DNA of 64,000 nucleotides from Cenococcum geophilum (Eukaryota), in NCBI GenBank assembly GCA_050273025.1, contig CP158635.1, forward strand, positions 248,001 through 312,000. The letters run 5' to 3'. A program made the position numbers and the translations under genes. Shown one piece after another: positions 10,786 to 60,070 of this stretch (within the stretch, counting starts at the first letter, position 1; each line of letters opens with the position of its first letter). Under the pieces are notes generated by a model. That model was not told the origin of the DNA, searched no databases, and was given only the letters and a program-made list of their open reading frames with translations.

Positions 10786-11239
10786 AGTGGTAGGGGTATT
10801 AGGTAATTCTGGGTAATTTTTTTAGGGGTTCTAGTCTATGTATATCTTATAGGTCCTTTCCTTAGGGTTTTATTCTTTTTTTTAGGTCTTGTCCTTGTAG
10901 TCCTAGTAGTGTCCTTAAGGTCCTATTTTATATTCTTGTAGATATATTTAAGTTCCTTCTTAGGAAGAAAGAGTAGAGTAAGCTTTAGATAATATTAGTG
11001 ACTTAATTAATTGAGATATAAGCACGGTAAAAGGGTCGCGTAAGCCTATATAATTGGATTGTCTATAAATAAGAATCTAAAGCTAAGGAAAGGAAAGGAG
11101 AAGAAGAGTAGCGCCGTTTAGTGTTTTATAAGATCTTTACGTTACGTAATCGCAAGATACGGCAATCTATAGCAACTTGCCGGTGCGAAGTTTTGCTAAG
11201 TTCTGCTAAGTTCTGCTAGTGCCGTAATAGTAATCCTTT

Positions 11240-33028: not shown

Positions 33029-36000
33029 TGTCGGGAATGAGGCAAGCGGTCGTCACGTGTCGTCACGTGTCGCCGCGGCACTAGCGTGGTGAGGAACCTT
33101 AGGTTCCTTACCCACCCCCTAATTCTAAACAATAAGCTTTATTAACCAATATTACTATAACCCTACTCGAGTAGTCGTTATTGGTGAGTCACCCTGTGTG
33201 ACCAACACTGATTAGTGGTTGAATATATAGTTAACTACAGAGCAGCTAGGTTATTGATAGAAGAGATAGTCTCGTGTAGGGGTGCTATATGCGCTTATAT
33301 GGAATGGATCCCGGCGATACTGTACTACCTTAGACTTGCGGAAAACTAGTAATAGAAGTGTTACTGAGTACTAGGAGATACTAAGTTGCGTCTATTATAT
33401 AGAACAATCACGTTTACGAAGATTTGGTTAAGTACTTTAGGTTAGAAGTGTTACTAAACCTAAGGTCCTAAGTCAACGTCTAAAACGCGTCGAATAATAT
33501 CTTAAATTGCCTACCTTTGGACAGCAAACCTACGAGATCCTATAAAACCGAAAATCCTACCTACCTTTGATGTACGACACCTCGTCGATTCTACCTACTA
33601 TGGCGTTAACCTATCCGAAGAAGTACGAGAAAGATATTAACCCGGAGATATGGGATAGAGCTATAACTAACTTTGTAACTGCTAAGTAATAGGACCTAAA
33701 TAGATTCTTAGTATACCGTATAGAACACTATAAAGATAGCGAATATAATGATACCGCGCTATGGTATTGTATAAAGGAGGACTTTATTAGATGGATAAAG
33801 GAAACATAGGTTCCTATAAATAAAGATATTATATAGGACTTCTGTAACTTCCTTTAGGAGTATAGAGTATTTATCCCTATAGATGGGGGTAGTATTAGGG
33901 ACAATATTTAGGAACACGTTATTAATGTAAAGGAAGAGTATAAATGGACTCTATAAGAGATTAAGTACTAACTATGCACTATAAAGAAGCTTAAATTACA
34001 ATAGAACCTAAGTAATATACTACTAGAGACGCGTTCTAACTCTATTGCTCTAGGCACGAGTTCTAATATTCCATATCTATCGCCTCTACCTCTGTCTTTA
34101 ACTCCCCTGTATTAACTAGCTTAACCTATAGCCTTAATTAATAACCCCTAATAAGCGTAAGATCCCCTTATTTTGCGGTCTAACAACCTTTAAACTCCGC
34201 CAACTAGATCTATGTCACTATTATAGCCTATAATATAATATAGCCAAACACTAATTGGAGGCACCTTAAAAATGCTTATAGAGCTTATAAAGCTCTATTT
34301 AGAATAGGAGAAGAAGTTTAGCGGAGAACTGTATAATATCCTTAATTTAAAGTTACGTATCTTCTATAACTGTTGCTAGAAGGTTGGACTAGAACCCAAT
34401 TAATACTATATTGCTTATTTAGTTATGCTTAAGGGCCGAGCTAGTACCTTCTATTATGATTGTTTAGTAGGAAAAGGATATAATTTTAACCGAATAATAT
34501 ATAAAATAAGATGCTACTTTAAAATAGAGGAGAATAAGCAGCAGTATATGTTGGAGTGGAGAGAGACTACTTTTCTAAGAATTATTGCTATAAACCTAGG
34601 TGCCTCTCAACTTGATTGTCTTTAAAAGCTCTTTAATTAACTCTAGACAATTTAGTGTGGTTTATCCAAATTATATTAAAAGGACTTTAGCCTACGCGAT
34701 TAAGTTATTAGCGTATGCTAAGGTATTAAAGAATGTAACCTTGCTTTCTTTAACCCTATAAGTACTTATAAAGGAGTGTATGCTTAATTAAGATCCTCTA
34801 TTGGCACCGCCCTATGCTCTTAAGAAGTATAGCAATTTAACGCCTAACTTTAACCTACTTTGATCAACCTGGCCGACTAATATAATTATAACTGGACTAA
34901 TTAAATATATGGTGGTCGTAGTAGGGGATACAGTAGAGGGTATAATTAACGTCGACTATAAAGCAATTGTGGAGGTCCTTATAGAGGTTTATTTTGTAAC
35001 GATTAATAGAAGAAATGCTACGTTTGTGAGAAGCTAAATTGCTAGTTAACTAGACACCCCCTTAATAGACGAAAGGAGGTATATAATAAGTTTCGCTAGA
35101 GCGCACGAAACGTTAGAAACTAAGAAGTCACTATAGCCTACTTCTAAAGCTTCCTGGTTTAATATAAAGGCGAAGAAGATCTTAAGGGTGAGATTGACGA
35201 GGCTAAACAGCTCCTTATGGATATGGAAATTGAGGACTACTCTCCTAACTAATACTTTACCGAGTATGGTGAGGTAAATGGCGCATAAACCGTTGCTGTC
35301 CTTAATGACTAATTTACGCTCCATTCTGTTATAAGGTTAGATATCTTTAATGAGCTAAAGGAAAGTTCCGCGTTCTCCTTTGACGATAGATACTCGGCGA
35401 ACATCTTTTATGGTATTATGCCAGATACTAAAGCCGCAGGAGTATCTATAGTAGGAGAACCTTAAGTCCGAGCTCTTTAGCAGCTTAATAGTTCTGTCTA
35501 GATTAACTAATTAATGGCAGGCTAATATACAATTTGCTTTAGCAAGGGTACTGTAATCTCTTTTAGCACAATTAAGGTCTAAACCCCGTTAGGATATATT
35601 ACTTTCTACGTTATTCCCACAAATACTTTGTTCCTATTCTGCATCTAAGATATAGATAAATTAGGTGTTAAGCTTGATAACCTTGAGAATATGCTTGTTT
35701 AGGGAGATAATTGGGTGCCCGTTGTACGCAAGTGGGGTTACCCTTGGTTGCTCCTTTAATAGCTAGAAAGGAGCGTTGCTTAGAGTCACTTGACTAAGTT
35801 AGAGCTATATTAACTACATCGTCGTTTTAGCTACCTATCCGTTCACTGACTGCTTAGGGTTCTTTAACGAGCAGGTCATGAAGTTGAGGTTAAGGCGATT
35901 GAATATTTTATAAAGTACTGCTATTACTACTAAATGAACTATCTTAATTGGGGACTACTCTATATACCTATTAATCTTCCTACCGCTAAGCTATTTATAT

Positions 36001-37050
36001 TTGTTAATGGATCGTTTGCAAACAATAAAGATTTTAGCTCCTAGCTAGAATATGAGATTATTATAGCGAACGAATCTACTGGAGAGAATGACTTCACGAT
36101 CTATGGTAATCTTATTTATTAGAGCTTAACTAAGAGTAAACGCGTTACTTAAAGCGTTCTAGCGTTAGAGATATATGGAATAGTTGGTGGAGTTAATATG
36201 GCAATTGCAATTGGAACTACCCTTAAGATAATTATAGATTAACTTAAACTTCCTATTATCCCTATAATCGTATGCACTAACTTATATTCCCTTTATAAGT
36301 ATTTAGTTAAGCTTGGTACCATAAAGGAGAAGCGCCTTATAATTAATATTATGGTACTTTGGCAGTCCTACGAGCGTTAAAAACTCTTTAAAATCTAATA
36401 GATTAATAGCTAAGATAACCTGGTAGATATAATGACGAAGGTAAACCTAAATAAGGCACTAGAGACGTTTGTTAATATAAATACTCTATATATATGAGTT
36501 AAAGGTTAGGTTAAGAGGGAAATTTAGAGAAGTTAAGATCTTATAGAACTTTAACCGCCGGTTAAAGTTGTCTAATTGGTTAGATTCTTGCCAAGAGCGC
36601 CATACCTAATTAATTCGGGTGGCGGTGTGGAGTTCTACTAACGCTATTTATTAAGCTGGCTAATTAGGATTTTTTATCCCCGGGATAGAAAATCGCCATT
36701 GGCTTGGCTAAGAGCGGTAAGCGGAACTAACATCTTTGCACGAACCCGTATATCTACCTATACTACCTCTTCCCCTTTATTTCTTCTTCTTCTTCTCCTT
36801 AGCTTTGTATCTTTATATAGTAGCAATCTATAAGTGTATATAAATGGTAACTATAAAAGAAGAGTTGCTAGTGTTAGGAATGAGGCAAGCGGTTATTACG
36901 TGTCGTCACGTGTCGCCGCGGCACTAGCGTGGTAAGGAACCTTAGGTTCCTCACCTACCCCCTAATTCTAAACAATAAGCTTTATTAACTAACATTACTG
37001 TAACCCTACTTAAGTAGTCGTTATTGGTGAGTCACCCTGTGTGACCAATA
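33029..37050 (+). mobile_element. Element C: internally deleted Ty1/Copia (GalEa-like) LTR retrotransposon
   Basis: 179-bp LTRs at 33029-33207 and 36872-37050; TSD CTTAT at 33024-33028 and 37051-37055. Gag, protease, integrase Zn-finger and RNase H relics are present; integrase core and RT are missing. Confidence 0.93.
33600..36527 (+). pseudogene. gag-pol relic of element C with a deletion at ~35940
   Basis: CYVCEK..C at ~35016-35043; GIMPDT at ~35413-35430; LHRRF.Y at ~35815-35835 then KYC..; jumps to F(V)(D)GSFANNKD at ~36000-36033 and DN.(A)D.MTK at ~36415-36440. Confidence 0.85.
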
Positions 37051-37454: not shown

Positions 37455-39964
37455 CTAGCGATACCTCTTAATTGGATGCCATACGCTATATATAAGGGCT
37501 ACGTAATTTTTAAAATACTTAAGTCCTTTAATCCACTTTAAGTAATAAAGATGCTTATAGTAGAACCCTTACCTAAACACTCCTTCTATAATATAATTAT
37601 TAAGATACTTTAATAGTGTATCCTTCTTTATAAATAGGCGGGTCTGCCTTAGTATTAAGAGTTAGTTATTACCGATATAGATAAGGTAAATAAGATTAGT
37701 AAATGTTATAGAATACAGCAGCTGTATCTTCCTTAATTAGGACCGCGCTCCGCGTCTTATTTAGGTTTTTTTTAAAAAGGCAAGTCTAAGCTAATCTATT
37801 CTTCTACCGCTTTGCCTATTAATAGGTACTAGTATTAGCATTACTTACACCTCTTTTTACGCCTATTATACTTTAATCTACTTTAAACCTAAGTTAAAAT
37901 CTAATAGCCTTGCTTAGGATCCCATTCTACTAACTCTCTTATTAATTATAATACTTAACAAGATTGCGGATAAACTTTATATAGAATAACTTAGCGTATC
38001 CTTCTTTAAGCTTATTTAGCGGCTAAGACAGTAGTTTAGCAATAGCAGCACGTTTATAAAATTTATACTATACAGCTAAACAGGTAGGAATTTCCGTCTC
38101 ATCGCTACTACTAAGCTATCTTTTAATATTGTAATTATTAATAGTGTTATAAAAATTAAGAATAACCTAGTCCTCTTTTTGTTTACGTAGGACGTTTATA
38201 ACACTATAAAGTTTGCATTTAGCTTTATTATAACAGTTATATAGTTTTTTTCCCTTCGCGGTATTAATAGGGTAATATCCCCAGCTCCTAATCTTTTGCT
38301 TATATTGCTCTTATTTTTCGTAAAACTGCATAATATTAGGGTGTTAATTAAGTTTTAGCTAGAATTTAAGCTTCTACTTATTAGTTAGACCTATAGGGGC
38401 CCGCTTATCCCTTAAAATCCCTATCTATACGGTATATTAAATAAGGTTGTTCTATAATAAAGTCCTAAAGTAAATTAACTAGAAATTTCGCTTAATTAAA
38501 TTAGGTAAATAAAACCGTTAGTAGGTATTACCATAATAACATATTATCTAATTTCGCTCTTCTAAAGTAAGGGCGCCTAGAAAACTTAGTTAATATATAT
38601 ACTTATATTAAATTAGATACTTACTATTTAATTTCCTTTTAAACGCTTATTATAACTAGTAAAGTTTAAGCGATTATTTAAACCTGGCTACTAGGCCTAA
38701 CTATATATAGTAATCGCGGCATTTCTAGTAAGCGAATGCTTTAGTATCCGATACTCCCCTATAACTAGCCATTGTCTTAATATCTTAAAAGATGGGTCGT
38801 TTCACTATCTCCTTCTTAAGCTTTTCTTTAAGACTCTCTTTTTTTCGCTAGGATTTTAAGTTAAAAAATCTCCCCCGGTAAAATATAATGGCGTTAAAAT
38901 ATATTATCCGCAATAGTAAGGCTTATAAGATAGAATAGGATATAAAAAGCTAGAATGCTTTTAAGATGGAAAATAAACCTCTTACTATAGGTCTACTAGC
39001 GCTATTCGCGCCATCTTTAATTAACGTCGCTATATACCATCTGTCTATGCCTCTAGAATTCTTAATATATATAAGACTTACGAGCGCAATAGTTATAGTT
39101 TAATTAAAGTTTTTCGTATCGCGAACTTTTAGGATTGTAATATATTTATATAAAAGCGCTTTATTAGAGCCTCTTACGCTTAAACTTTTAATAAAAGCTT
39201 AGGGTCTTATTGCCGTAGCACTAAAGAAAAGGAGGATTGCTCCTATCTACACTTAAAAACGACTATAGTAAGGCTTTACGTCCATTGTTTAATAGGCATT
39301 AATAATTATATACAAGTCCTATATATATATTGCCTCCTTTTCTTTCTCTAACGTGTCCAGCTTATATCTTAGCGTTAAGTAGATTAAAATCCACTGTAAC
39401 AAATTAGCTAGGTTTTTTTTTTTAAGAATTAAAGATTACCTGTATTTTGTATATTAAGTTCTACACTATTATTTATACTGTGGCCTACTACATCTATAAA
39501 TTTACATAGTATTCGTCTTTAGTACGCCTAGATTATACTTTTCTTTTTAATTTAAGAATTCTTTACGCGCTATTTAAGGTATGTTTTAAATATATCGGCT
39601 ATATACTAATAAAGGGCCTTGGTTGGGTTAGACTTAACTTTTAGGTAAAACCTAAATATAAATTTTTAGTATTATAAGGTAAATTTTTATTTAAATACAA
39701 GCGAACTTTTTTTTATTTTAAAACTTATACTTAACAAAAGAAGTAGACCAGGGCTTCCATTTTAACTTCGCCCTTCCTTAATCCTTATAATATACAATCC
39801 TCTATTATAAATATTCCCCCCTTAGAATTGGCGTCTTCCCTAGCTCTAGAGTTAGAGTTTAAATCTAAGTCTAAAGCTGGCTTAAAATAAGACGGCTTGC
39901 CTAGTTTAGAGTCTAAGCTAAAGGCTAGATCTATATTTTACCATTTCTTACTTTAAGAGGGCAT
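37455..39964 (-). pseudogene. DUF3435-type tyrosine recombinase (Starship captain-like), RIP-inactivated, about 4 introns
   Basis: Manual minus-strand translation with RIP reversed gives an acidic N-terminus, then FKTYLEWRVKNSRIKKES, YELDTSEKEKEAMY, ATA.RP.A.IES, LELYQLRRAS, GALT.EERNQIMCH.GDTY.RFY, NFQSIYFG, RDKRAPTGLT and C-terminal HFKNHAALVHGV. These are motifs I recognise from fungal DUF3435 proteins. GT-AG introns at ~39653-39706, 39394-39439, 38985-39037 and 38577-38624. Confidence 0.82.
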
Positions 39965-42900
39965 GGTGGTTAAACGCGTAATATCTTAGTACTTTAGTAG
40001 CTATAATTGCCTACACGCAGAAGCTAGCTTAAGAGTGACTACTGTTAATAGGAACGCTAAAAAAGGCTCTATAGGAGATTGGCGTTCTTAAAAGCGGGAT
40101 AAGGTAAAAAACCCTATAGGTAAAAACCTAGAAATTAAGTATTAGAAGTAAACAATATAATAATAGGGGAAATATATATATATAGCTACTATGGGAAAAG
40201 GGTTAAAGGAGCATAGTGTAGAAGGGAGGTTTTATTATATAAGGGTAGTGCTTTTAGCGGAGGATAAGGATAAAAGTAGGCGGCGGACGTCTATAGCTTT
40301 TTAAATAACGTTAGCCGCTAAGGGACGTTTAGGGAGCTTTAAGAGGTACATTATAGGGCTATATGCGCAATTCTAGGTTTAATAGGTAAGTAAGGGAGAC
40401 CCTACTATCCTTAGCATACTTAGTATATTATAAAAGCGGTAATAGATATAGGTTTAAGCGAGGAGAAACTACCTCCTAAAACGGGGGAGAGGAACCTCTA
40501 AATCCGGCTACGTCTTCCCCAATAACAAGATTCTTAAAGTAATATCTAAGTATTAAAATCTAAAACGGTTTAGCGGTATAAATATAATATCTGCTATTAC
40601 TCGTTACTATATAGTAGACTCCTATATAGGGTATATTACTTCTCCTTCCTATTTTATTTATCGCTCCTAATATTATAGGTATAACTTAATATACTATAAT
40701 ATCTAATCCTATAGCCCTACCTACTAGTATTAATTTAAGATTCTTTAATATGTTCCCTTTTATTTATAATATCCGCTTTAATTATAAAGGCTTTAAAAAA
40801 AAAGCAACTTGGAAATTATAAGGTAATAATATAATGCTTAACTAAGTGCTTCCTATAATAGGTATTTTAATTAAGTATATAAATAGGGCTTTAGTACGTC
40901 TATTATTATGGCTTATATAAATGCCTTATTACGAAATAAGGGTAGTAGCTATAGAGCGTATATATTTAAGGAGTTTATAAAACGTTACGTAATTAATCAT
41001 AAGGGTTAAGGGTGTAAGGAGGTAATATACCTACGCGTAGCTGATATAAGCTATACGTAAGGTATACGCAAAAGCACGGGGCTCTCCTATAGAGGCCCCT
41101 GCGGTAGGGTTCTATAATACTACCCCCCCTTCTATAGAGGCGGAGCTCCGGCGACGCTGTAGTTACTATATATATATAGAAGGGACACTTAAGGTATAGA
41201 AAAGAAGAAAGGGGGGTATTACTAAAGGTTTTAAAATAATGTTATATAATAAGGCTTGGCATCTAAGAATCTAACCAATTAGATAACTTTAACCGCCGGT
41301 TAAAGTTCCTAAATATCTTAACGATATTCTAGACACATAATCGCACTTTACTGCAATTTAACGGCAATTTAACAGTAATTTGCCCTTACGTGGCAATATA
41401 TAACGGTTTAACTCTATATAGGCTTCTATAGAGGATTAGGTATAAAATCTCTACTTAGGCCCAGTTTCTATAGGTTCGCGTAATAAAAGTTGCTAATTAA
41501 ATCCTTTGCATTTTTAAAGTCTTCCTATAGTTACCATTCTGGCTAATCTATATTAAATCCTGTGTATATAGCTCTATAGTAGAGCCATTATCCTCTACCT
41601 TTACTAAAGTATTTAGAGTTAATAATTTATTTAACAGTCTACTTCTTATAGTTCTTATCTTTATTCTTATCTTGGATTAGTACTAATAGGGGTTTAGGCT
41701 ATATTTACCCTAGTAAGGGGTTAGGCTAATAGAGGTATAATAGCTATAGGTAAAATATAGGCTATATCCCGTAGATAGCTAGGGTAGGTAAAAGTTTTAG
41801 CTTATATACGGCTCCCCTATTAATAACTTATTTAATTAAATAGGGGCTAAGGTTTTTATAATTAAGTGACTTTATAGGCCTCTGCGTAGAGATATTATAT
41901 ATATTTAGCTATACCTAGTTGCCAATATATATCTCCAGTAGTGGCGTTTTATAGCAGTTAATAAAGTAGGCCTACTTTGCTTAAGCCTAGGCCATTTCTC
42001 CCTTATAGTAGTTAAGTAGATTTTTTATACGGTCTGTATACTAGTCGGTAAGTAGTATTTTAAGGCGTTTTCTATATAGCAGCTTCTTATTAATAGGTTT
42101 TAGTAGCTCTATACCGGATTAGGGGTAATAACCCTTATTTACAAAGAACGGGGTAAGTCCTATAGTGGTTAAGACGTAGTTATTCACTATAAATTTACCT
42201 AGTAGGAGGTAATCTACCTAGTTATCTTAACTAGAGGCGACTACCTATTATAGGTACGCTTTTATACTAGTATTAGCGTTTTCCGGTTACCTAGTAGTTT
42301 TATAGTAAAAGGATATAGATATCTTAACGGAGATACTAAAGTATTAGTAGATTTGTCTCTATATATTAGAGTTAAATTATATACCTTAGTTAGACGTAAT
42401 TAAGTTAGGTAACCTATATAGTCAGTAAACTTTATAGAGAAAGGCGTTAGTAATATCGCTAACAGCTACACCTTTAGATGGGATATAGTGGCGCTCTTTT
42501 ATAAGTCGGCATATTATTATAAGGATGTTCTTATAGGTACAGCCATATCGTTTATAGGGTGGTAGGTTAATAATAAAATCTATAGTAATATCTGCCCATT
42601 ATTATATAAGTACTAGTAAAGGGTATAGTAGTCCTTAGTATTTTATATTAAAGGCCTTAGCGCGCTTATAACTATAGCAGGCGCCTATAAAGTATTTAAC
42701 TAAGTTTATTATTTTTAGCTAGAAGTAATATCGGCTAAGAAGCTTATAGGTTCCTTCTCTACCTAAATAGCCACTTAATTAGAGGTTATAGGCCATTTAA
42801 ATTAGTTACCGTTGTAGATTTTTTAAGTTAGGGATAAATAGGCAACCTTTATAATGGAGCCTGTTCTCTTTTACTTTTAAGGCTGCTATATTAATCTAGC

Positions 42901-44328: not shown

Positions 44329-47300
44329 TATCAGATAGTCTATATTCTCGGTGGCGTAGGACGTGCACTGGTTACGTATACGGGTCACGTATATTGTAAA
44401 TATCTTTGTCTAAGCCAGGGGCCCTAGGTCAAGACATAATTAAGATCATTAATTAATCAACCTATTTTTATCAATAAATAGCTCTATATAAACTATCTAA
44501 CAGTTATAAGCCCGGTCCGCCGACTTAAGAAGCTATTCAGCTATTAATCAATTATTTAAAGAAATTTTACCTCATCGTCAGACTCTAACACCTCATCGTC
44601 AGGACGCAGACTCTAACAGAAATCCTACCTCAATTGTCACAGCATAAGATTCCATGAGATTCCACGAGATTCCACAAGACTCCACCTCAATCGTTAAAGG
44701 ATAATCCTAACGATAAGGACGATCCTAATAATAAGGACGATTTTGCGATAAGGACAATCCTAACAACGAATTCCATCTTAATTCCCATCTGCCTATTAGT
44801 CAAATGACTCTACTAACGTCGAGTTTATCTACTACAATTATCCTTAATAAGCTAGAAGACTGGGAGTAATAAATCTGGCAACTATAAGCCCTTATAGATA
44901 AACAAATTTGGGCCTATATTAACCCAGATAAGGAAGTACCTTAACGAGGTCTACTATAAGAACTACCCTATCTAGAAGTTATAGATTTTAATAAGAATGC
45001 AACCTTATATACACAGCTCTCGACAAATCAATAGAGGGTGTACAAGAACAGCAGATAATACTACGACTAGGATATAAAGTATTTCCTAAAACAAGAAGAG
45101 CACCTTTAAAAGATTCGCACCCAAATTACGTCTATAGTATTGATTTAGAAGAAGCTACTACTTGACCCTTCTCTTACAGTTAAGGAATGGATATCTCGGT
45201 TAAAGGAGAATATAAAACCTACTTCGTCGTTTATTAGGAAAAATATACAACACTAGTATATAGAAGCTCTTAAGGGGTTTAAACACTTATTAAAATTAAA
45301 TTAGTGGTTAGATTAATAGGAACATATAATAGTACTAGGAGAGAAGTATAAGATCCCTTAAATATCTGATAGAATCTGCCTATAAGAATTAGCAGAAGTC
45401 GTTTAACCCTTTAGCGACGCCTACTATATAAAGTATACTACCAAGTTAAATAACCCTTAGAAGTCAAGATCTTCCAAATACCGCAGAGTAGCAAAGGAGC
45501 TATAAGAAGGACTTAGAATACCCTTAAAGAAAGCCAATACTACTATAAGAGGGAGTACCTTTAATGTAGACTTCGCAGAGCAAGCTATAATGGATTACTT
45601 TAATACTACTAAAGGTCTAGGGAAAGGAACCTTAGCATATACTAGACGCTCGAAGAGAGCCAGGTCACTAGTAGATAAGGAGACGTCCCATAAGAAGCTA
45701 CTACCTATATACTTAGCGTGCGAGAAACAAGGACATTCCCTATAGGACTATTAGTATTTATTTAAAAACAAAAGACTCAAAGGAGTTACGATCGGAGATA
45801 CTTATATTAAAATGGTGCTAAAGAAGGTAGAAAAGAATAAGGATTTCGCTAACTAAGTTATAAAGGTCAGACTTAAAGAATAGGAAGATAAGGCTTAATA
45901 ACAACAGGATAAGAGTTAGGAAGTTAAGATTAAGGGAAAAGCTAATACAATATTCCTAGAATCGTATTACACAGGTTAAATCCATCCACTAAAGCTATTA
46001 ACTATTCTTAACTTAGGAACCACTCTCTATATCTTTAATAACTTCTCTTGTTTCTATAACTTTAGGAAAGCTCTAAGACTTAAATATATTATCGCCGGTA
46101 GCTTAGAAGTGCCTATATTAGGCTATAGCAATATTACTATTTAAGTTATAAAACTAGATAAAAGCAAGGGAATCCTACGTCTTAAGGACGTTACCTTTTA
46201 TACGGACTTTAATATAAATCTAGTGTCGTTCCGTTTACTTTAAAAATGAGGGTACTACTAGAACAATAAAGGAGAGAATAATCTTCTAGTTTAAAAGGAT
46301 AACTTAGTCCTATATTAAATGGAAGAACGTTATAAATAATAGACTATTAAATACGTCTGACTAAGAAGTCTATTAGCGTTTAATATAAGCCGACTACTAT
46401 ACTAAAGAAAGCGCAGAGCATCGTTAAGAGACGCTTGTTTAGATTTAAAAGGAGATATATATTTATAGTATTTCCGTTTAGGTTATCCAGGACCTATAAG
46501 CCTTTATTATTTAAGTCTTAACGCCTTAAAAATTAAGCTTTAAGGCCTAAAGATAACGGAATATTAATATTGCAGCCTCGCTAAAATTAAGCGTTAGGTC
46601 TTATAAAGGTTCCTAAAATAGAAAATTAATAAACTCTATCTTAACCTCTATATTAACTAAACTAACCTTAAGGAAGCGCATGCTGGATTCGTATAAGTTA
46701 TACTTATCTATAACACTTTCTTAGGAAGATCCTTCCCATATTTTATAACGACGTATAGTAAGGAAAAGGAGACACTATAAGTGCTTAAAGATTTCATTTA
46801 GTAAATTCGTCTAAGGTATAACCTTAAGGTTAATACTATTAAATCAGATAATAAGCTAGGGAGAAGGAGAACCCTTAAATAGCTACGGACTTAAGGGATT
46901 ATATTTAAGCCTTCGGCGCTATATACCTAAGCTTAAAATAGTACCGCTAAACGCTTAGGGGGTATAATTATTAAGAGAGCATAAGTAATAAGAATTGCTG
47001 CTAATCTACTACACAATCTATGGAACGAGATAGTTAACTATATAGTCTACCTTTAAGATTAAACACTACGGGAAAGTAATAGATGAAAATCGCTATATAA
47101 GAGGTTTTATACCTTCTTAGCTAATAAAAGACTAAGAAAACCACAACTAGCGCACCTAAAAGCCTACGGCTGTAGGGTGTACGCGATAACATCAGACGCC
47201 TAGCTAAAGAAGAAAAGGCTAAGTAAGCTAGATCCGCGAGCCTATATTAGCTATCTCGTCGGCTATAACTCTACTAATATCTATAGGATCTAGATCCCAT

Positions 47301-47946
47301 ATAAGGGTATCGTTATCTCTACTAGGGACGTTATCTTTAATAAAAAGATGTTCTTTAATAGTAAGTAAATAAACATCTTAAAGAACCTATACGCTAAATT
47401 AGACACGCTAATTAAGGAGATTTAACTCCTTAATAACTAGACTAAGAATAAGGTCCTTTTAGAAGATAATAAAGAAGTATTTAAACCGTTAATTTAAGAG
47501 GAAGATAACGACGTTAATAAGCTAGTTTAAACCTTTAATAAGTTAGCAGACCTTAAGCTTATAAGAGCTCTTGAAGATATATATTATACGCTACCTCTAA
47601 TAAAAGAAGATGAAGAATCTGTTAGATAATCTGTATTCTCGGTGGCGTAAGACGTGCACGGGCCACGTGCACGGGTCACGTGTATTGTAAATATCTTCGT
47701 CTAAGCCCAGGGGCCCCAGGTCAAGCAACCATCAAGACACGATTAAGATCATCAATCAATCAACCCATTTCATCAATGAATAGCTCTATATAAGTTATCT
47801 GACAGTTATAAGCCCGGTCCGCCGACACAAGAAGCTATTTAGCTATTACTCAATCATTTGAAGAGATTCTACCTCATCGTCAGACTCTAACACCTCATCG
47901 TATCAAGACGACCCTGATTGAAATCCTACCTCAATTGTCACAGGAC

Positions 47947-48080
47947 GAGATTCCACGAGATTCCACGAGATTCCACGAGATTCCACGAGACTCTACCTCA
48001 ATCGTCAAAGGACGATCCTGACGACAAGGACGATCCTAACAACAAGGACAATCCTGCGACAAGGACGATCCTAACGACAA
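47947..48080 (+). repeat. 5'-leader tandem repeats of family G (10-bp GAGATTCCAC x4; 18-bp AAGGACGATCCTGACGAC x4); also at ~44645-44770
   Basis: Directly visible tandem units in both G1 and G2. Confidence 0.9.
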
Positions 48081-48118
48081 AAAATACCATCTCAATTCCC
48101 CCTTTACCTATCAGTCAA

Positions 48119-51100
48119 ATGACTCCACCGACTACCTCATTAAACACGATCATCCTTAATAAGTCAGAAGACTAGGAACAATGGCTATGGCAACTCCGAG
48201 CCCTCGTGGATCAGTAAATATGGGCCTACGTTAACCTAGCTATAGAAGCACCTTAAGAAGGTCTACTTAAAAAACCACCTTATCCAAAGGTTATAGATTT
48301 TAATGAGAATGCAACTATATATATATAGCTCTTGTCAAATTAATAGAGAGCGTATAAGAACAGTAGACAATACTATAACTAGGATATAAAGTACTTCCTA
48401 AAATAGGAAGAGCATCTATAATAGATACGCACCCAGATTACGACCATAGTATTAATTTAGAAGAAGCTACTGCTTAACCCTTCCTTAACAGTTAAAGAAT
48501 GGCTATCTTAACTAAAGGAGAACACAGAACCTACCTCGTCGTTTATTAGGAAGAAGGTATAACACTAATATATAAAAGCCCTTAAGGGGTTCAAACACTT
48601 ATTAAAATTAAATTAGTAGTTAGATTAATAGGAACACGTAATAATACTAAGAGAGAAGTATAAGATCCCTTAAATATCCGATAGAATCTGGCTTTAAGAT
48701 TTAGCAGAAGTTATTTAACCTTTTAGTAACGCCTACTATATAAAGTACACTACCGAGTTAAATAACCCGCAGAAGTTAAGATCTTCTAAATACCGCAGAG
48801 TAGTAAAGGAGCTATAGGAAGGACTTAGAACACCCTTAAAGAAAGCCAATACTACTATAAAAGGGAGTACCTTTAATGTAGACTTCGCAGAGCAAGCCAT
48901 TAAGGATTACTCTAATACTACTAAAGATTCACGAAGAGGAAGAGCCTTAGTACGCAATAGACGCTTAAAGAGAGCCGGGATATTAGTAGATAAGGAGACG
49001 TCCTATAAAAAGCTAACGCCTAAGTGCTTAGCGTGCGGAATACGAGGATACTCCCTACGGGACTATTGGTATTTATTTAAAGATAAGAGACCTATAGGAG
49101 TTATAATAGGAGATGCGCGCATTAATAGGGCACTAAAGAAGGTAGAAAAGAATAAGAATCTTACTAACTAAGTTGCGAAGATTAGACTTAAAGAATAGGA
49201 AAATAAGGCTTAACAATAACAGGATAAGAGTTAGGAAGTTAAGATTAAGGGAGAAGCTAATACAATATTCCTAGAATTGTATTATATAGGTTAAATCTAT
49301 CTACTAAAGCTATTAACTATTCTTAACTTAGGAACTACTCTTTATATCTTTAATAACCTTTCTTGTTTCTATAACTTTAGGAAAGCTTTAAGACTTAAAT
49401 ACGTTATCGCCGGTAGCTTAGAAGTGCCTATACTAGGCTATAGTAACGTTACTATCTAAGTTATAAAACTAGACAAGAGTAAGGGAATCCTACGTCTTAA
49501 GGACGTTGCCTTTTATACGGACTTTAATATAAATCTAGTGTCGTTCCGTCTACTTTAAAAATAAGAATACTACTAGGATAATAAAGAAGAGAACAATCTT
49601 CTAGTTTAAAAGGATAACTTAGTCCTATATTAAATGGAAGAACGTTATAAATAATAGACTATCGAATACGTCCGACTAGGAGGTCTATTAGCGTTTAATA
49701 TAAGCCAACTACTACGCTAATAGAAGCGCAGAGTATTATTAAGAGACGCTTGTCTAGATTTAAAAGGAGATATATATCTATAGTATCTGCGTCTAGGTTA
49801 TCTAGGACCTATAAGCCTTTATTATTTAGGTCTTAACGCCTTAAAAGTTAAGCTTTAAGGCCTAAAGATAACGGAATATTAATATTGCAGTCTCGCTAAA
49901 ATTAAGCGTTAGGTCTTAAGAAGGTTCTTAAAATAAAAGATTAATAAACCCTATTTTAACCTCTATATTAACTAAACTAACCTTAAGAAAGCGCATGCTA
50001 GATTTATACAAGTTATACTTATCTATAACACCTACTTAGGAAGATCCTTCCTATACTTTATAACGACGCATAGTAAGGAGAAGGAGACACTATAGGTGCT
50101 TAAAGATTTCGTTTAGTAGATTCGTCTAAGGTATAACCTTAAAGTTAATACTATTAGATTAGACAACGAGCTAGGGAAAAAAAGAACCTTTAAATAGCTA
50201 CGGACTTAAGGGATTATATTTAAGCCTTTAGCGCTATATACCTAAGCTTAGAACGGTACCGCCAAACGCTTAGGGGGTGTAATTATTTAGAGAGCACGAG
50301 TAATAAAAATTGCTGCTAATCTACTACACAACTTATGGAACGAGATAGTCGACTATATAGTTTACCTTTAAGATCGAACGCTACGGGAAAGTAACGGTTG
50401 GATATCGCTATATAAGAGGTTCTATACCTTCCTAGCCAATAAAAGATTAAGAAAGCCGCAACTAGCGCACCTAAAAGCCTACGGCTATAGGGCGTACGCG
50501 ATAACGTCGAACGCCTAGCTAAGGAAGAAAAGGCTAAGTAAGCTAAATCCGCGAGCCCATATTAGCTATCTTGTTGGCTATAACTCTACCAATATCTATA
50601 GGATCTAAATCCTATATAAGGGTATCGTCATCTCTATAAGGGATATTATCTTTAATAAAAAGATATTCTTTAACGGCAAGTAAACGGACATCTTAGAGGA
50701 CCTATACGCTAAATTAGATACACTAATTAAGAAGATTTAACTACTTAATACCTAGACTAAGAACGAGGTCCTTCTAGAAGACGATAAAGAAGTATTTAAA
50801 CTATCAATTTAAGAGAAAGACGACAACGTTAATAAGCTAGTTTAAGCCTTTAATAAGTTAGCAGATCTCGAGCTTGTAAGAGCTCTTAAAGATATATACT
50901 ATACACCACCTCCAATAAAAGAAGACGAAGAATCTCTATATGCCTTTTACGTTAAGTATCCTATAAAGTTAGATATATAAGGTACTGATTAAGACGTCGC
51001 TTATTAAGCAGGAGATGCGTTTAACACTTAGGGGGTGTCTAATAACTTAGTTAAAGACTCGTTTAAGGAAGCTAGCAATAATAGGTTTAAAGACTTTATT

Positions 51101-53032
51101 ACTAAAAGGATCACGTTAGCCTATTACGGCGCCTTCTTAGTAGGAAGGAAGTTTAACCTTAATAGTCGACTTAATAATAGTAAGCTGAAATTAGGCAGAA
51201 TACGCAATGTTAGATTATATAGGAAGAACCTACCTCCGCTACCCTAGTTAATCTAAAACCTTAATACGTATCCTCTTTAAGATTAGTTCTAAGAGGCTTA
51301 ATAAGCCTATCTCCAATCTTATTATTAAATAAGGTCGTTTTAAGAAACAAATAAGAAGCATATAAAGGGACAGCAGGTCCTTAGCTTAATATAGGTATTC
51401 GTCTACAAGACGGATAAGTATAGATTTCTCCAGAAATATAAGGTACGCTTAGTAGTTTACAGAAATTAACAGGCCCTAGGAGACCTACCTATAAGAGCTA
51501 CTATATTAGCTAGTACGACCTTCCAAACCCTTATAGCGATTATAGCAAAATTCAACTTAGAGACAATATAGATAGATATAGTTAATACGTTTATCCATTG
51601 CGATCTTGACGAGGTTATCTATATAAAGCTACTACTAGGGTTTAATAAAGGAAAGACAGATAAAGTACTACGCTTAAGAAAAGCCCTATACAGACTATAA
51701 CAATCACCACTATTATAGCAGAAGAATCTCATAAGCTTATTAAACGAATTAGGTTTTAAAGAAGTACCCTAGAAGCCGTATGTTATGCTAAAAGGTAAAA
51801 TAGTTATCTTCTTCTACGTCGATAATATTGTCTTCTGCTACCGAAAAACAGATAAGAAGAAAGCTTAAGAAGTAATTAAGGAGCTAAGTAAGGAATACTA
51901 GATAAGTACCCTTAGCGAGCTAAAATAGTTCCTAGGAATTTACGTGCTACGCAATTATAGCTAGAGGCTCCTATAGCTATCCCAGGAAGCCTATATTAAG
52001 AAGATAGCTAACTAGTATAAGATAGATCTTAGAGGGCGTCTTCTAGACACTCCTATGGCAGAATTAGAACTTCTCCCTACTAATTACCATATAATCCGTC
52101 CAACGCATCCGTCTCCTAATATAGACCTATTAGTCCGTCCTATATCCCTACTAGCTTCTATAATGCTATATTAGAGAAAACTAGGTTTAGTACTCTATGC
52201 AGCCACTACAACGCGTCCGGATATTGCCTTTACAATATTACGGCTAGTAAGGTTTAATTAAGACCCAAGCTAAAAGCACTATTAAGTAGCAGATAAAGTT
52301 ATCCAGTACCTATATAGTACGAGGAGTAGAGCAATCTACTATAGAGGAGATAAGGAAGGAATGAACGGTAGAGGGAAAGATAAAGGAATACGCAACTAAG
52401 GACAAGACAACGGAGACGGTAGAAGTAAAGCGCAATTATTTATCTATGCTAGCGACGCATTATTCGCGGACAACTCCGTCAATAGAAAAAGCTTATAAGA
52501 ATACATTATAAAGCTATTCGGGGGGCCGATCGCCTAGAGAGCAAATAAGTAGGGTACTGTTACGACGTTAAGTACAGAAGCTAAGTTATTAGCCCTATTA
52601 CAGACAGTAAAGGAAGCTATCTTTATCAGCAGGCTATTTAAAGTAATGACGTTATACCTAAACGAGCCCTTAATTATTAACTATAATAACGTCTAGACAC
52701 TCCGACTAATTATAGAAGACACGGTAAAGCTAATTACGAAGCTCCGATACGTTAATATCTATTAACACTGGTTGCGTTAAGAATACGCAATAAGACGAGT
52801 GCTATTATAATGGAAAGCGACGAAGGAGATAATCGCCGATGGACTTACGAAGGCCCTGCCTAAGTAGAGGTTTAAGAGCTTTGTCAATATAATCGGAATA
52901 GTAGATATTAAGGAGCGGCTGAATGAGGAGAAGCAACTAGAGGACCTAAGGGAGAAGGTTAGGGCGAGAAGGAAGGATTTAGATAAGATTATAGTTCAAT
53001 TAACGCATAAACGGACACAAGAAGGTGGCTAG
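48119..53032 (+). pseudogene. gag-pol relic of G2
   Basis: CCHC knuckle at ~49024-49068; (Q)NGTA.R.G at ~50249-50276; KL.PRA..(G)YLVGY at ~50540-50581; FYVD(D)I at ~51813-51830; ADGLTKAL at ~52835-52858. Confidence 0.9.
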
Positions 53033-55699
53033 CTTCGTCCTCAACTAGGTTAAAGCTAAGGGGGTATATTAGATAATCTATATTCTCGGTGGCGTAGGAC
53101 GTGCACAGGCCACGTGTATGGGTCACGTATATTGTAAATATCTTCGTCTAAGCCTAGGGGCCCTAGGTCAAGCAATTATTAAGACACGATTAAGATTATT
53201 AATTAATTAACCCATTTTATCAATAAATAGCTCTATATGAGTTATCTGACAGAATCTCTATATGCCTTTTATATTAAGTATTCTATAAAGTCGGATATAC
53301 AAGGTACTAATTAAGACGTCACTTATTAAGTAGGAGATGCGTTTAATACTTAGGGGGTATCTAACGACTTAGTTAAAGACTTATTTAAGGAAGCTAGCGA
53401 TAATAGGTTTAAAGACTTTATTACTAAAAGGATTACGTCAGCCTATTACGGCGCCTTCTTAATAGGAAGGAAGTTTAACCTCAATAGTTAACTTAACGAT
53501 AGTAAGCTAAAATCAGGCAGAATACGCGATATTAGATTATATAGGAAGAACCTACCTCCGCTACCCTAGTTAATCTAGGACCTTAATACATATCCTCTTT
53601 AAAATTAGTTCTAAGAGGCTTAACAAGCCTATCTCTAATCTCATTATTAAATGAGGTTATTTTAAGAAATAGATAAGAAGCACGTAAAGGGATAGTAGGT
53701 CCTTAGCTTAATATAGGTGTTTATCTATAAGACGGATAAGTATAGATTTCTCCAAAAATATAAGGCACGCTTAGTAGTCTGCGGAAATTAATAGGCCCTA
53801 GAAGACCTACCTATAAGAGCCACTATATTAGCTAGTACGACCTTCCGAACCCTTATAGCGATTACTACAAAATTTAACCTAGAGACGATATAGATAAATA
53901 CAGTTAATATATTTGTCTATTGCGATCTTAACGAGGTTATCTATATAAAGCTACTGTTAGGGTTTAATAAAGGAAAGACAGATAAAGTACTGCGCTTAAG
54001 AAAAGCCCTATACGGACTATAATAATCACCACTATTATAACAGAAGAATCTTATAAGCTTATTAAATAAATTGGGTTTTAAAGAAGTACCCTAGGAGCCA
54101 TATATTATGCTAAAAGGTAAAATAGTTATCTTCTTCTATATCGACAATATTGTCTTCTACTACTAAAAGATAGATAAAAAGAGAGCTTAAGAAGCAATTA
54201 AGGAATTGAGCAAGGAATACTAGATAAGTACCCTTAACGAGCTAAAATAGTTCCTAGGAATCTACGTACTATATAATTATAGCTAGAGGCTCTTATAGCT
54301 ATCCTAGGAAGCCTATATTAAGAAGATAGCTAACTAGTATAAAATAGATCTTAGAGGGCGTCTTCTAAACACTCCTATAGTAGAATTAGAACTCCTCCTT
54401 ACTAATTACCATATAATCTATCTAATACGTCCGTCCCCCAATATAGACCTATTAGTCTATCCTATATCCCTACTAGCTTCTACAATACTATATTAGAGAA
54501 AACTAGGTTTAGTACTCTATATAGCCACTACAACACGTCTAGATATTGCCTTTACAATATTATAGCTGGTAAGGTTTAATTAGGACCTAAGCTAAGAGCA
54601 CTATTAAGCGGCAGATAGAGTTATCTAGTACCTATATAGTATAAGGAGCAGAGTAATCTACTATAGAGGAGATAAGGAAGGAATAAACGGTAAAGGGAGA
54701 GATAAAGGAATATGTAACTAAGGACGAGATAATAGAGACGGTAGAAGTAAAGCATAATTATTTATCTATGCTAGCGACGCATTATTCGCAGACAACTCCA
54801 TTAATAGAAAGAGCTCGTAAGGATATATTATAAAGCTATTTAGGGGGCTAATTGCCTAGAGAGCAAATAAGTAGGGTATGGTTACAACGTTAAGCATAAA
54901 AGCCGAGCTATTAGCCCTATTATAGGCAGTAAAGGAAGCTATCTTTATTAGTAGGCTATTTAAAGCAATAACGTTATAACTAAATAAGCCCTTAATTATT
55001 AACTGTAACAATACCTAGATACTCTAACTAATTATAGAAGATATAGTAAAGCTAATTATAAAGCTCTAATACGTTAACATTTATTAATACTAGCTATGTT
55101 AGGAATATATAAAGAGATGAGTATAATTTTAATAGATAGCGATAAAGGAGATAATTGCTAATAGACTTACGAAGGCCCTGCCTAAGCAGAGGTTTTAAAG
55201 CTTTGTTAATATAATTAGGATAGTAGATATTAAGGAGCGGCTAAATAAGGAGAAGTAACTAGAGGACCTAAGGGAGAATATTAAAGCGAGACGGAAGGAT
55301 TTAGATAAGATTATAGTTTAATTAACGCATTAACAAATATAAGAAGGTAGCTAGCTTTGTCCTTAACTAGGTTAAAGCTAAGGGGGTATATCAGATAATC
55401 TGTATTCTTAGTAGCGTAGGACATGCACTAGTTACGTGCATGGGTTATATATATTGTAAATATCTTTATCTAAGCTAGGGGCCCTAGGTTAAGACACAAT
55501 CAAGATTATTAATTAATTAACCTATTTTATCAATAAATAGCTCTATATAAACTATTTAACGATAGGCCCTTAGCGATTAAGGGGCTTGCTTTTTATGTGG
55601 TTAAAAAGGCCACTTTATAAGGAACTGCCTAATAAAGGTAAAAGCAGATAAGGTTCTGTTAATTTAGGAGGATAATATAGAGTTAGAAAAAGAGGAACC

Positions 55700-58600
55700 C
55701 TAGAGAAAGACTCCTCTTTAGAATTAAAAGGGATTAATATATTATATATTAATCTAAATCGGCTAGTTAGTAGAAAAAGCTATACTATCCTTTATACTTT
55801 ATTCTGTAATAGATATTAAGTTTTAACCTTTACCTTAGCTAACTCTAAAGTAAATACCTTTACCTTAATTAATACCTAGTGTGCCGTAAAGCTGGCTAAC
55901 TTTCTTAATACACTTATAGAAGATCTACCTAAACTAATTCCTATTTACGGGTATAACGGACGGGTAGGGTAACCTATTACGAGTATTTTATAAATATACC
56001 TCTATGTTAATAGGCGAAGGTAGTATAATGTCCCCTTCCTAATTACGGACCTTAGAAGCTATAATATAATTTTAAGGAGGAAATAGCTAGCCTATTTAGG
56101 CTTATAGCTTAATATATAAAGTAGACGGCTTATCTAGCCCTAAACTCTACCCCTAACCCCTTCTTTTATAAAAGAAATCAGCATTATAATAGAAAACCCT
56201 ATACAACCCTAGATTGATACTATCTACTAAACTAATGCTATACGTAGAGACTAGGCCTTTGAGAAGGATATACAGCTTAACCCATAACAGATCTATATAC
56301 TACGCCGCCCCTAAACTACCTATGTTATACCACCCGCACTATAGACTTAGAAAGTCGGTAGTAACCTACTTAAGTCCCTAGTAGAGAACCTAGGCCCTAC
56401 GCAGCTATAATAGAAGGCTAGGAATATTAGATAATATACTAAACTAATAGATTAAAAGGATAACTTATAGAAAATAGAATGCGAGCTAAGGAAGACTATA
56501 AACCCTATACCGTAAAATACGGCCCAATAAATATTTATAAAGAAACCTACGGACCTCCCACTAGTTAATATCTGCTATATTAGCGCTATAGGATTTTACT
56601 AGAACTTGGTTTAACCGGATACCATTGCCTTTATAACTAGCTTATATAAAATTAATTAAATAATTAAAGAAAAGGAAACCCTAGCCTAAGAGAAAAACAA
56701 GCTTATAGATAAGGAGCTAGTAGAACGGAAACTACCTTATTAGTACCAAGAGTTTAAAGATATATTCTTTAAGGCAGTATCTAATATACTCCTACCCTAC
56801 TAACCGTATAACTATAAGATCGAGATTAAACCAGATAAGGAAAACGTCCTTAGCTATACCCCCCTTTATAAACAATCCATTGCCGAATTATAGGCCACTA
56901 AGTAGTATATTGTGGATAACCTGATAAAGGGGTTTATTAAGCCTAGTTAGGCCCTATTTACCTCCCCTATTTTCTTTATAAAAAAGCTAAACAGAGGACT
57001 TTATTCCTATATTAATTACTATAAGCTTAATAATATAACCCGCAAAGACCGTTATCCGCTACCTTTATTAGATAAGACGCTGGCCCAAATAAATAAAGCT
57101 AAGGTATTTATAAAGCTTAATATTCGCTAGGCCTTCTACCGAATCCGGATAGACCCTAGATTTGTAAACCTTACTATATTTTGGACTTAATACGGATTAT
57201 ATAAATATAAACTACTTCCCTTTAAACTAACTAACGGACCTACTACGTACCAACAATATATAAACGATGTACTCTTTAACTACCTTAATGACTTCTGTAT
57301 GGCCTGCCTAGATAATATTATAATTTACTCTAAAAACAAGTTATAATATAAGGAGTATATCTATAAGGTCCTATAACGGCTTTATAAGGCTAGCCTTTAG
57401 GCTAATATTAAGAAGTTAAAGTTTAGTATAAAGTAAACAAAGTACCTAGGGTTTATTATTAGTATAAACGGAATTAAGGTAGACCTAAAAAAGACGGCCG
57501 TAATTAATTAATAGGAATTACCACGGACTATAAAAGGGATATAGTTATTCCTAGGCCCCTATAACTTCTACTAACGCTTTATTAAGAACTACAGTAGGAT
57601 TGCTTAGCCCCTTAGCCGCCTTATAATAAAGGACTAGCCCTTCCACTTCAACACCGTATATAGGTAGGCTTTTAATAAACTTAAGAAACGGCTAGTCTCC
57701 ACTCCTTTACTCACCCACTTTAACCTAAAACGGCCCTTAATGCTAAAAACGGATGCCTTAGATAGTGTTATTGCTAGCATTTATTCCCAAAAGCAGACGG
57801 ACGGGGAATGGCACCCTATTACTTACTACTTAAAGACTATAGTAGATGCTAAGCTAAACTACCCAATTTATAACAAAGAAATATTGGCTATTATCTATAG
57901 CTTTTAGCACTGGCGAGCATAGCTAAAAGGAACCCCTAAACCTATCTAAGTAGTTTTAGATTATAAGGCCTTAGAATATTTTATAATAATAAAAGCCCTT
58001 ACGGCCCGGCAGGCGCGCTAGACGGATATTCTATCTTAGTTTAACTTCCTAATTATATATAGGCTAGGCGCCATTAATTATGTAGACGCTTTTATAAGGC
58101 GTAAATAGGACCTAAATAACTAGATAGCCGTAAAGGTCTTATTATAGACTTAGATACTACTATAACTAGAGCACCTTAACCCTTAGATACGGGAAGAACT
58201 AAGTACTAAATCTTTAAGCGCCAAGATATATTCCATTAACCCTATGGAATTTAACCTTATTAATAAACTACTATAAGTAAACCGTATAGACCCTTCTTTA
58301 CAGAAGTACCGCGAAAAGGTAAAGGATGTTACTAGCCTATAGTCTCTTAAAAACGGACTACTTAAGCACTAGGAATGGCTAGTAGTAGTAAAAGAAAAGA
58401 ACTTACAAACCTAGCTTATTACTAAGTACATACCCATGTCTTTACGGCCCACCCTAAAAAAATAAGACCTATAAAATTATTGGTAATCGTTACTACTGGC
58501 CCAGAATGGTTATAGATATTGACCGTTATATAAGGAACTGTAATAACTGCCGTAGGTTTATAATTCTACAAGATAAGACCTTAGGACTATTAAAGCCACT

Positions 58601-59790: not shown

Positions 59791-60070
59791 AATATGGATA
59801 TATAAAGCCTAAGGGCAGGCTGTTATGGAGGGGGGGGTAATATTACGGCACTGGCAGAAAACGGCAGAACTTAGTAGCAGAACTTAGCAGAACTTTGCGG
59901 TTACGTAACTAGAGGACCATATAAAAGAACCCTACTTCGACCGGCGCTGCTCTTCTTCTCCTTTCCTTTCTCTAGCTTTAGATTCTCGTTTATAGACAAT
60001 CCAATTATATAGGCTTACGCGACCCCCTTGCCGTACTTATATCTCGATTAACTAAGTCGCTAATATAGCG

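Follow-up and report, generated by a model that had tools for sequence, protein, structure and literature searches.

How does one small non-coding block come to lie just behind pol in retrotransposons as different as Gypsy and Copia elements, and what might it do there? This question is raised by a stretch of 64,000 nt from Cenococcum geophilum (assembly GCA_050273025.1, contig CP158635.1, positions 248,001-312,000 of the forward strand), hereafter the window, which is a nest of retrotransposons degraded by repeat-induced point mutation (RIP; GC content 29-36%, TA/AT 1.5-2.0, (CA+TG)/(AC+GT) 0.26-0.57). Its elements Copia C, Gypsy B and Gypsy F carry the block, here called M1 (Table 1). M1 lies in the 3′-untranslated region (3′UTR), between the pol stop codon and the polypurine tract (PPT), as a module about 55-75 nt long that is discrete, accessory and non-coding, and short-patch recombination has spread it between families. 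As to function, the favoured explanation, which is given a probability of about 45%, is that M1 is a hairpin-forming 3′UTR cis-element of the genomic RNA, spread by recombination and kept because it is helpful to that RNA; the description of the module and its spread by recombination are far more secure than this assignment.

A module shared by three elements

The first-pass annotation had reported three nearly identical copies of the module, in sense orientation between the pol stop and the 3′ long terminal repeat (LTR) of Copia C, Gypsy B and Gypsy F, each amid unrelated flanks, and mapping of pol, PPT and LTR in the three elements bears this out. A 24-nt dyad pattern, which matches on both strands because it is palindromic, is found at only three sites of the window (36546-36569, 5539-5562 and 41285-41308, with 0-3 mismatches); when the similarity was set against dinucleotide-preserving shuffles, none of 100 contained a match. 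The next-best match elsewhere in the window to a profile of the three copies has an E-value of only 0.11. By self-BLAST the sites are joined over no more than 56-58 nt (80-90% identity), from which it follows that the flanks are unrelated, and in a three-way alignment the similarity is gone on either side.

Within M1, the dyad of 11 nt with a 1-nt centre described earlier (D1) is perfect in the Copia C copy, and the second, small dyad (D2) is likewise real; its right arm reads TCAGA, CCAGA or TCGGA in less-mutated copies elsewhere. One such copy (locus L002) and a contig of sequencing run X22 have TTCGA/TCGAA where RIP-mutated copies show TTTAA/TTAAA, which means that the original stem was richer in G and C. 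A closing AAGA/TCTT helix, proposed to complete a potential three-way junction, finds no support: single-sequence folds differ among copies, and RNAalifold on 32 copies yields two hairpins and no closing helix.

Copies and families beyond the window

A metagenome scan with a 31-nt pattern, in which only the dyad centre and one further position were degenerate, returned at least 127 loci besides the window; a collection of viral contigs gave no match. A profile search over the scan loci and the window (about 864 kb) recovered 143 full-length copies of M1, 133 of them unique, among the loci listed, to which the counts below refer. Only 4 of the copies found in this way fail the exact scan pattern; as the pattern fixed 23 positions of M1, conservation at those positions is uninformative (strong ascertainment bias). 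All copies are RIP-mutated, the best frames having 38-72 stops per 1000 codons.

Clustering of the 250 nt on each side of M1 gave 14 upstream (up) and 15 downstream clusters. Pairs of upstream and downstream cluster are (1,1) in 24 copies, (0,2) in 20, (0,0) in 16, (2,4) in 15, (4,0) in 10 and (3,3) in 8, followed by (6,3) and (7,5) in 5 each, (5,6) and (1,3) in 4 each, (2,7) and (1,0) in 3 each, plus singletons; the 3′ ends are mosaics in which one pol end is joined to two or three different downstream cassettes. Clusters up2 and up6 are Gypsy by Pfam (reverse transcriptase, RNase H, integrase, chromo or SH3 domains), with pol directly upstream of M1 on the same strand, and so is up5, the type of Gypsy B. 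Cluster up1 is the type of Gypsy F, with Pfam support below the cut-off; translations inspected by eye reveal a pol tail of chromodomain type in up0 and an integrase core in up4, and up7 shares a pol tail farther upstream with up5 (85% over 89 nt). Cluster up3, which includes Copia C, is Copia: it has the GalEa signatures KxRLVI, QTDD and ADxxTK in RIP-mutated form, with KxRLVI and QT(N)(N) seen in the relatives of Copia C, and 6 of its copies have an LTR of Copia C type at 243-378 nt downstream of M1, in locus L039 also 5.5 kb upstream. M1 is common to about nine multi-copy flank families, of Gypsy (at least four assigned by Pfam and three more by eye or by motif) as well as GalEa-type Copia elements, and is always in sense orientation.

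The limits of the module were taken from a comparison of 12 "de-RIPed" group consensuses, with positions counted from the GGAAC that opens the dyad. Unrelated families can be aligned only from about -8/-13 to about +40/+60, at 85-98% identity, and the adjoining pol tails do not align; particular pairs of families share longer blocks, which always include the M1 core. In 11 of the 12 groups the pol stop lies 11-118 nt upstream of M1, and in the twelfth there is no stop before M1. Among the 75 copies flanked on either side by 500 nt or more (58 with short flanks were left out of this count), a Gypsy PPT with LTR start on the same strand follows 27-299 nt downstream in 54; the remaining 21 are Copia copies and groups with another LTR start. 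Such a junction was found upstream on the same strand in 2 of the 75 and downstream on the opposite strand in 5. The orientation of M1 is fixed in all 12 flank groups, and none of the 133 unique copies lies inside an LTR.

An accessory module that moves as a patch

Most families carry M1 throughout: in the DNA examined it is present in 18/18 copies of up0, 17/17 of up1, 14/14 of up2, 9/9 of up3 and 5/5 of up7, and two copies of up4 and up6 that had appeared to lack it were found to have it on inspection. In the Gypsy B type, 3 of 13 copies are without M1; since they lie at three different loci, an M1-less lineage has been amplified. A Gypsy B paralogue in the window (55562-60066) has about 20 nt in place of about 105 nt of Gypsy B (alignment A1). 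Among Copia copies, L059 and L019 are without M1 and L064 and L002 are with it (alignment A4); further, some DNA contigs of run X1 connect 36518 with 36660 and so skip M1.

The Copia copies bear on the origin of the module. The insert of about 125 nt in L064 and L002 matches the Gypsy B 3′UTR over a segment that begins right behind pol, takes in M1 and ends in a remnant of the PPT's G-run. This G-run is the PPT in Gypsy B and internal in Copia, 250-330 nt from the LTR, which suggests that the transfer went from Gypsy to Copia. In Copia C of the window the patch is another one, longer and of the Gypsy up2 type, that brings a second palindrome (M2, see below) as well; it was inserted within about 2 nt of the insertion site in L064 and L002, at a purine-rich site of Copia. 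Copia elements have thus gained M1 at least twice, as patches of Gypsy-type 3′UTR at the same site. The earlier proposal of a cis-module exchanged between superfamilies is upheld by the discrete block in about nine multi-copy flank families, by Copia lineages with and without M1 and by the Gypsy-type 3′UTR sequence of the insert.

From what is known of reverse transcription, the route was probably a double template switch made by reverse transcriptase between RNAs packaged together, or a short-patch recombination equivalent to it. Chimeric LTR retrotransposons do arise in reverse transcription of co-packaged RNAs, as the accessible portions of PMC1950507 and PMC5668417 describe; while the cases given there lie within a family or superfamily, the M1 patches cross between Gypsy and Copia and always involve the same small module.

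Companion palindromes and folding

M2 has outer arms of CCAAT and ATTGG around a 12-bp inner stem. The loci contain 87 M2 sites, which form an unbiased sample because M2 lies outside the scan pattern. Within 400 nt downstream of an M1 there are 66 of them, 35 in the same orientation as M1 and 31 inverted, strictly according to the downstream family; 11 of the other 21 are more than 400 nt from any catalogued M1, and 10 are in loci whose M1 copy was removed as a duplicate. M2 folds well, with a z score of -3.49 and none of 200 shuffles as stable. Pair 3 of the inner stem is of C-G type in 50 of 79 unique copies, of G-C type in 27 and mixed in 2, and both types occur within several flank families; this is a compensatory transversion, beyond what RIP can produce, and speaks for hairpins in single strands. 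At the centre of D1, 92 of the 133 copies have G, 40 have C and 1 has A, with G and C both found inside most families; exchange of G and C at the centre of a perfect dyad amounts to a flip of the hairpin. Taken as sequence patterns, these exchanges point to the dyads folding into intrastrand hairpins at some stage, whether as RNA or as cDNA. Every arm mutation at the dyad centre of the 133 copies is a CpG-to-TpG or CpG-to-CpA transition; this and the change of TCGA to TTAA show that the mutation process hits CpG as well as CpA.

In less-mutated copies and in the consensuses, D2 contains the 8-nt word CTGATTGG; when M2 is in the "same" orientation, its left arm has CCAATCAG, to which this word is exactly complementary. 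The two words could represent one protein site in opposite orientations, or could allow pairing between M1 and M2 in the RNA.

A third palindrome, M0, is 8 nt long and of CACGTG type. Of the 90 copies of up0, 1, 3, 5, 6 and 8, 85 have M0 or its RIP derivative (TTACGTAA or TTATATAA) no more than about 40 nt 5′ of M1, compared with a frequency of 4% in random 40-nt windows; none of the 35 copies of up2, up4 and up7 has it. The M0 block is also found in U3 of the Gypsy B LTR, beside TATAAA (78% over 50 nt), so that the same block serves 3′UTRs and LTRs.

Known RNA families do not account for these sequences. Rfam gave no match at the gathering score across the window, and around M1 and M2, the least-mutated copy included, only matches of 7-12 bits with E >5; aragorn found no tRNA gene in the 864 kb and none in the group consensuses.

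What the module may do

An RNA cis-element is favoured because of the fixed sense orientation of M1, its exclusion from LTRs, its nearness to the pol stop, the repeated capture of its core and the hairpin-type evidence from M2. M1 and its companion M2 would act as single-stranded hairpins, with the 3′UTR of the genomic RNA as the likeliest place, and not as sites in double-stranded DNA. There they may offer a structured platform to a host or particle factor, either in dimer linkage and packaging or in RNA stability and export, and families that acquire the module would keep it owing to the benefit to their RNA.

Several observations weigh against this reading. M1 is not essential, given that the three Gypsy B-type copies at different loci attest to the amplification of elements without it. 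M1 itself folds no better than its shuffles (z scores of -0.55 to -1.65), and covariation is absent from an alignment of 32 copies, where the RNAalifold term is -0.36 and a two-sided change is seen in a single pair of a single sequence; owing to the 23 fixed positions and to post-mortem RIP, this result neither supports nor refutes an RNA structure. The true RNA reads (46 reads of run X21) include none over M1 and cannot be used for or against expression, which applies equally to two runs only guessed to be RNA that cover the M1 bin and not its flanks. Further, the dyads are perfect up to a 1-nt centre and would suit dimeric DNA-binding proteins equally well; motifs reminiscent of promoters are present, namely ATTGG/CCAAT in good flanking context, once in M1 and twice in M2, and the CACGTG palindrome 5′ of M1; and the occurrence of M2 in both orientations is easier to understand for a DNA site. 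Lastly, the pair swaps in M2 could stem from hairpin-templated correction during reverse transcription, with no selection involved.

Some of these points lead to the main alternative, a DNA-level one, rather unlikely on balance, in which M1, M0 and M2 together form a platform of host transcription-factor sites on double-stranded DNA. Candidates would be the CCAAT-binding complex at ATTGG/CCAAT, a basic helix-loop-helix protein at CACGTG and a zinc-cluster dimer at CCG-N-CGG. In less-mutated copies ATTGG does stand in a CTGATTGG-like context, the outer arms of M2 supply CCAAT and ATTGG, and both the frequency of M0 in six groups and its recurrence beside TATAAA in U3 would fit, as would the perfect dyads and the indifference of M2 to orientation; the palindromic CGG-CCG boxes in Sirevirus LTRs are, in the part of PMC2829016 that was available, taken as transcriptional activators. 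An enhancer, however, would be copied to the 5′ end of the element if placed in the LTR, which is exactly where M1 never occurs; it is always downstream of the genes it would have to serve, its orientation is fixed in every flank group, and M0 is missing from up2, up4 and up7. Neither would symmetric pair swaps in M2, with so few mixed copies, be expected if a protein reads the identity of the bases.

Unlikely as well is that M1 is a passenger without function, its palindromes being both products and hot spots of template switching that persist because they do no harm. The mosaic 3′ ends, patches of differing length that all contain M1, the amplified M1-less lineages and the missing covariation are compatible with this, and centre flips and inversion of a whole module are typical of palindrome dynamics. 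A passenger would nevertheless hardly be represented by the same minimal block with the same left edge in about nine multi-copy flank families, nor have entered Copia twice from different donors; in the DNA examined, 7 of 8 upstream families carry M1 in almost every copy, and it is far better conserved than the adjoining pol tails.

Still less probable is a variant of the RNA reading in which M1 and M2 are shared palindromic "linkage tags", by which RNAs of different families, even of Gypsy and Copia, pair and become co-packaged. Such tags would explain patch recombination across superfamilies, the mosaic 3′ ends and the survival of defective elements, for example the internally deleted Copia C, which would ride in the particles of others.

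The first-pass annotation had also considered a tiny mobile unit, and M1 does resemble a miniature DNA transposon (MITE), which would have entered each of the many elements separately, in being small, in having internal inverted repeats and in its many copies. No target-site duplication was found at the block edges in 129 contexts and the 12 group consensuses, and no terminal repeats, inverted ones included, at the block ends in the flanks listed; no catalogued copy lies outside a retrotransposon context, every well-flanked one being in a recognisable retrotransposon 3′ end. Together with the fixed orientation and the fixed position in the 3′UTR, this means that M1 is not an ordinary MITE, and an origin of this kind is very improbable. 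Scarcely credible is a conserved micro-ORF (open reading frame) with its start at the ATG in AAGATGTC and its course across the dyad, for even though most families have an ATG in good context and several differences between families, the G/C centre among them, would be synonymous, up9/10 and a less-mutated, transcript-like contig have ATT for ATG and a frame-shifting 2-nt centre, the linker lengths differ by non-multiples of three, the stops fall at differing places and coding would leave the dyads unexplained.

Other readings were dropped on inspection: an intron-like one (GT..CTAAT..TAG), as the 5′ G is not conserved, and a Helitron end, as conservation runs beyond the supposed end. Homology of the left half of M1 to the TATA region of an LTR was seen by eye only and is not claimed, the BLAST alignment ending at the edge of M1.

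Comparison with known systems

A literature search of article texts gave no description of M1 or of any 3′UTR module shared across superfamilies. The text of PMC12910237 has no terms for palindromes, hairpins or conserved motifs, and searches with the motif strings returned unrelated primers only. M1 is best classed as a conserved cis motif of LTR retrotransposons which is spread by inter-element recombination; its closest precedents are GalEa elements' Conserved Hairpin Site (CHS) and the motifs of Sireviruses.

The CHS, described in 2017, is a 9-nt word of CTGATCAGT type directly after the 5′ LTR (PMC5445492; here and below, as far as its accessible text goes). It is, like M1, a short palindromic, hairpin-type non-coding element of fungal LTR retrotransposons, and an "extended" form is unexpectedly conserved across families within one species; the additional files of that paper on the extended CHS might document a related homogenisation within species. 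Copia C itself has the CHS word CTGATTAGT after its 5′ LTR, and in less-mutated form the D2 arms of M1, CTGA and TCAG, correspond to the halves of the CHS word. In contrast to M1, which lies after pol and is shared with Gypsy elements, the CHS is placed at the border of the 5′ LTR, in the position of the primer site, and belongs to GalEa elements only (PMC5445492).

In the non-coding DNA of Sireviruses there are likewise highly conserved dyads built around CGG/CCG, and their linker between pol and the 3′ LTR has special features (Bousios et al. 2010, PMC2829016, accessible part). They differ from M1 in that they are plant Copia elements only, with many tandem boxes inside the LTRs, upstream of TATA, that are inherited within one genus and do not extend across superfamilies (same source). 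M1 is no counterpart of their RM boxes, having a single D1 per element, outside the LTR.

Two further kinds of element share single properties with M1. The dimer-linkage palindromes of retroviruses and Ty1 form either a hairpin or an intermolecular duplex, and recombination often occurs in their vicinity. Their self-complementarity, and with it a predicted capacity for pairing, recurs in D1 (11+1+11) and in the 12-bp inner stem of M2, yet they sit in the 5′ leader beside the packaging signal, whereas all M1 copies come after pol. Position is what M1 has in common with the 3′ elements for RNA export or stability: the constitutive transport element (CTE) of simple retroviruses, the RNA transport elements RTE and MTE of the mouse retrotransposons IAP and MusD and the stability element of Rous sarcoma virus all act in cis on unspliced RNA and are placed behind the last ORF, either immediately ahead of the 3′ LTR or right past a stop codon. 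These are, unlike M1, much longer and more structured, and M1 has no sequence or Rfam similarity to them. To our knowledge, no element of the CTE/RTE type has come from fungi or is shared across superfamilies.

The host elements and their surroundings

The features of the window are collected in Table 1. As its frames are riddled with stops, Pfam was run on translations with stops coded as X. On the minus strand, Gypsy B matches RVT_1, RNase H, integrase and a Tf2-type SH3 domain; Gypsy F has a sole match, to an integrase zinc domain, whose 23.2 bits fall short of the cut-off of 25.5. The window has four Gypsy-type PPT/LTR junctions, two with M1 and two without. Upstream of the fourth Gypsy PPT (4517-4530), a 25-nt stretch at 4531-4590 (minus strand) resembles the left half of M1 only and has no dyad; it is below the profile threshold and may be due to chance.

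Copia C has no Pfam match, which is put down to RIP. By its sequence it is a fungal GalEa Copia, with a 179-nt TGT..CA LTR, the CHS word and VDIMTK as RIP form of ADxxTK, and the GalEa motifs are present in its relatives. This agrees with the hallmarks in the accessible text of PMC5445492, namely a TGT..CA LTR of 138-311 bp, the CHS word instead of a tRNA primer site and ADxxTK ending RNase H; according to the same text, GalEa elements are very abundant in one ectomycorrhizal ascomycete. Only 4.0 kb separate the outer LTR ends of Copia C (33029-37050), compared with about 5.9 kb in the L039 relative, and by eye a gag knuckle, protease and RNase H are kept, and integrase and reverse transcriptase are gone. 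It is, therefore, an internally deleted, non-autonomous copy.

Table 1. Position of M1, its parts and companions, and landmarks of the host elements in the window
Feature	Position	Strand	Remark
M1, Copia C (GalEa type)	36529-36601	+	35 nt past pol stop; nhmmer E 7.4e-22
M1, Gypsy B	5507-5579	-	nhmmer E 8e-20
M1, Gypsy F	41252-41324	-	nhmmer E 4.8e-22
M1 left arm, TTAAGAT.. (Copia C copy)
D1, perfect 11+1+11 nt dyad	36547-36569	+	0 mismatches; sole hairpin common to all folds
D2, small dyad TCTAA-TTGG-TTAGA	36571-36584	+	contains ATTGG (CCAAT on opposite strand)
GCCAAG, distal conserved end of M1	36590-36595	+	beyond a variable-length linker after D2
M2, second shared palindromic module	36655-36708	+	CCAAT/ATTGG outer arms, 12-bp inner stem
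M0, RIP-mutated remnant 5′ of M1, Gypsy B	5579-5588	-	L002 copy keeps GTCACGTGAG
M0, RIP-mutated remnant 5′ of M1, Gypsy F	41332-41342	-	family consensus
M0 block	11123-11153	-	CACGTG-type palindrome
Copia C 5′ LTR	33029-33207	+	followed by CTGATTAGT at 33208-33216
Copia C pol stop	36495-36497	+	after ..VDIMTK.. RNase H tail (translation)
Copia C PPT	36853-36864	+	
Copia C 3′ LTR, TGT..CA, 179 nt	36872-37050	+
Gypsy B PPT	5465-5476	-	abuts 3′ LTR
Gypsy B 3′ LTR	5226-5464	-	self-comparison
Gypsy F pol tail end	~41414	-	translation
Gypsy F PPT	41123-41133	-	LTR start 41112-41122
M1-less Gypsy B paralogue, 3′ end, then PPT	59784-59837	+	alignment A1

Other parts of the window are repetitive or of a different nature. 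A stop-riddled frame between Copia C and Gypsy F (about 38100-39237, minus strand) matches DUF3435 (E 7e-10), a domain typical of Crypton-like tyrosine-recombinase elements. Long direct repeats of 86-88% identity occupy 44329-55560, pairing 44333-47620 with 47624-50935 and 50929-53238 with 53251-55548, which suggests tandemly arranged retrotransposon units that share LTR-like pieces. The region 606-1504 is internally repetitive, with many overlapping self-matches of 70-80% identity, like a degenerate tandem array.

Implications

Apart from the tRNA primer site and the PPT, conserved non-coding signals of LTR retrotransposons are usually family-specific. M1 is kept in many Gypsy families and has been captured repeatedly by a Copia lineage; this would mean a common reliance on one host or particle factor, or cross-talk between the superfamilies at the level of RNA. 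M1 serves as a marker by which recombination between elements can be traced, and in a fungal genome dominated by these elements it is a small, concrete sequence with which packaging, stability or transcription-factor binding can be tested.

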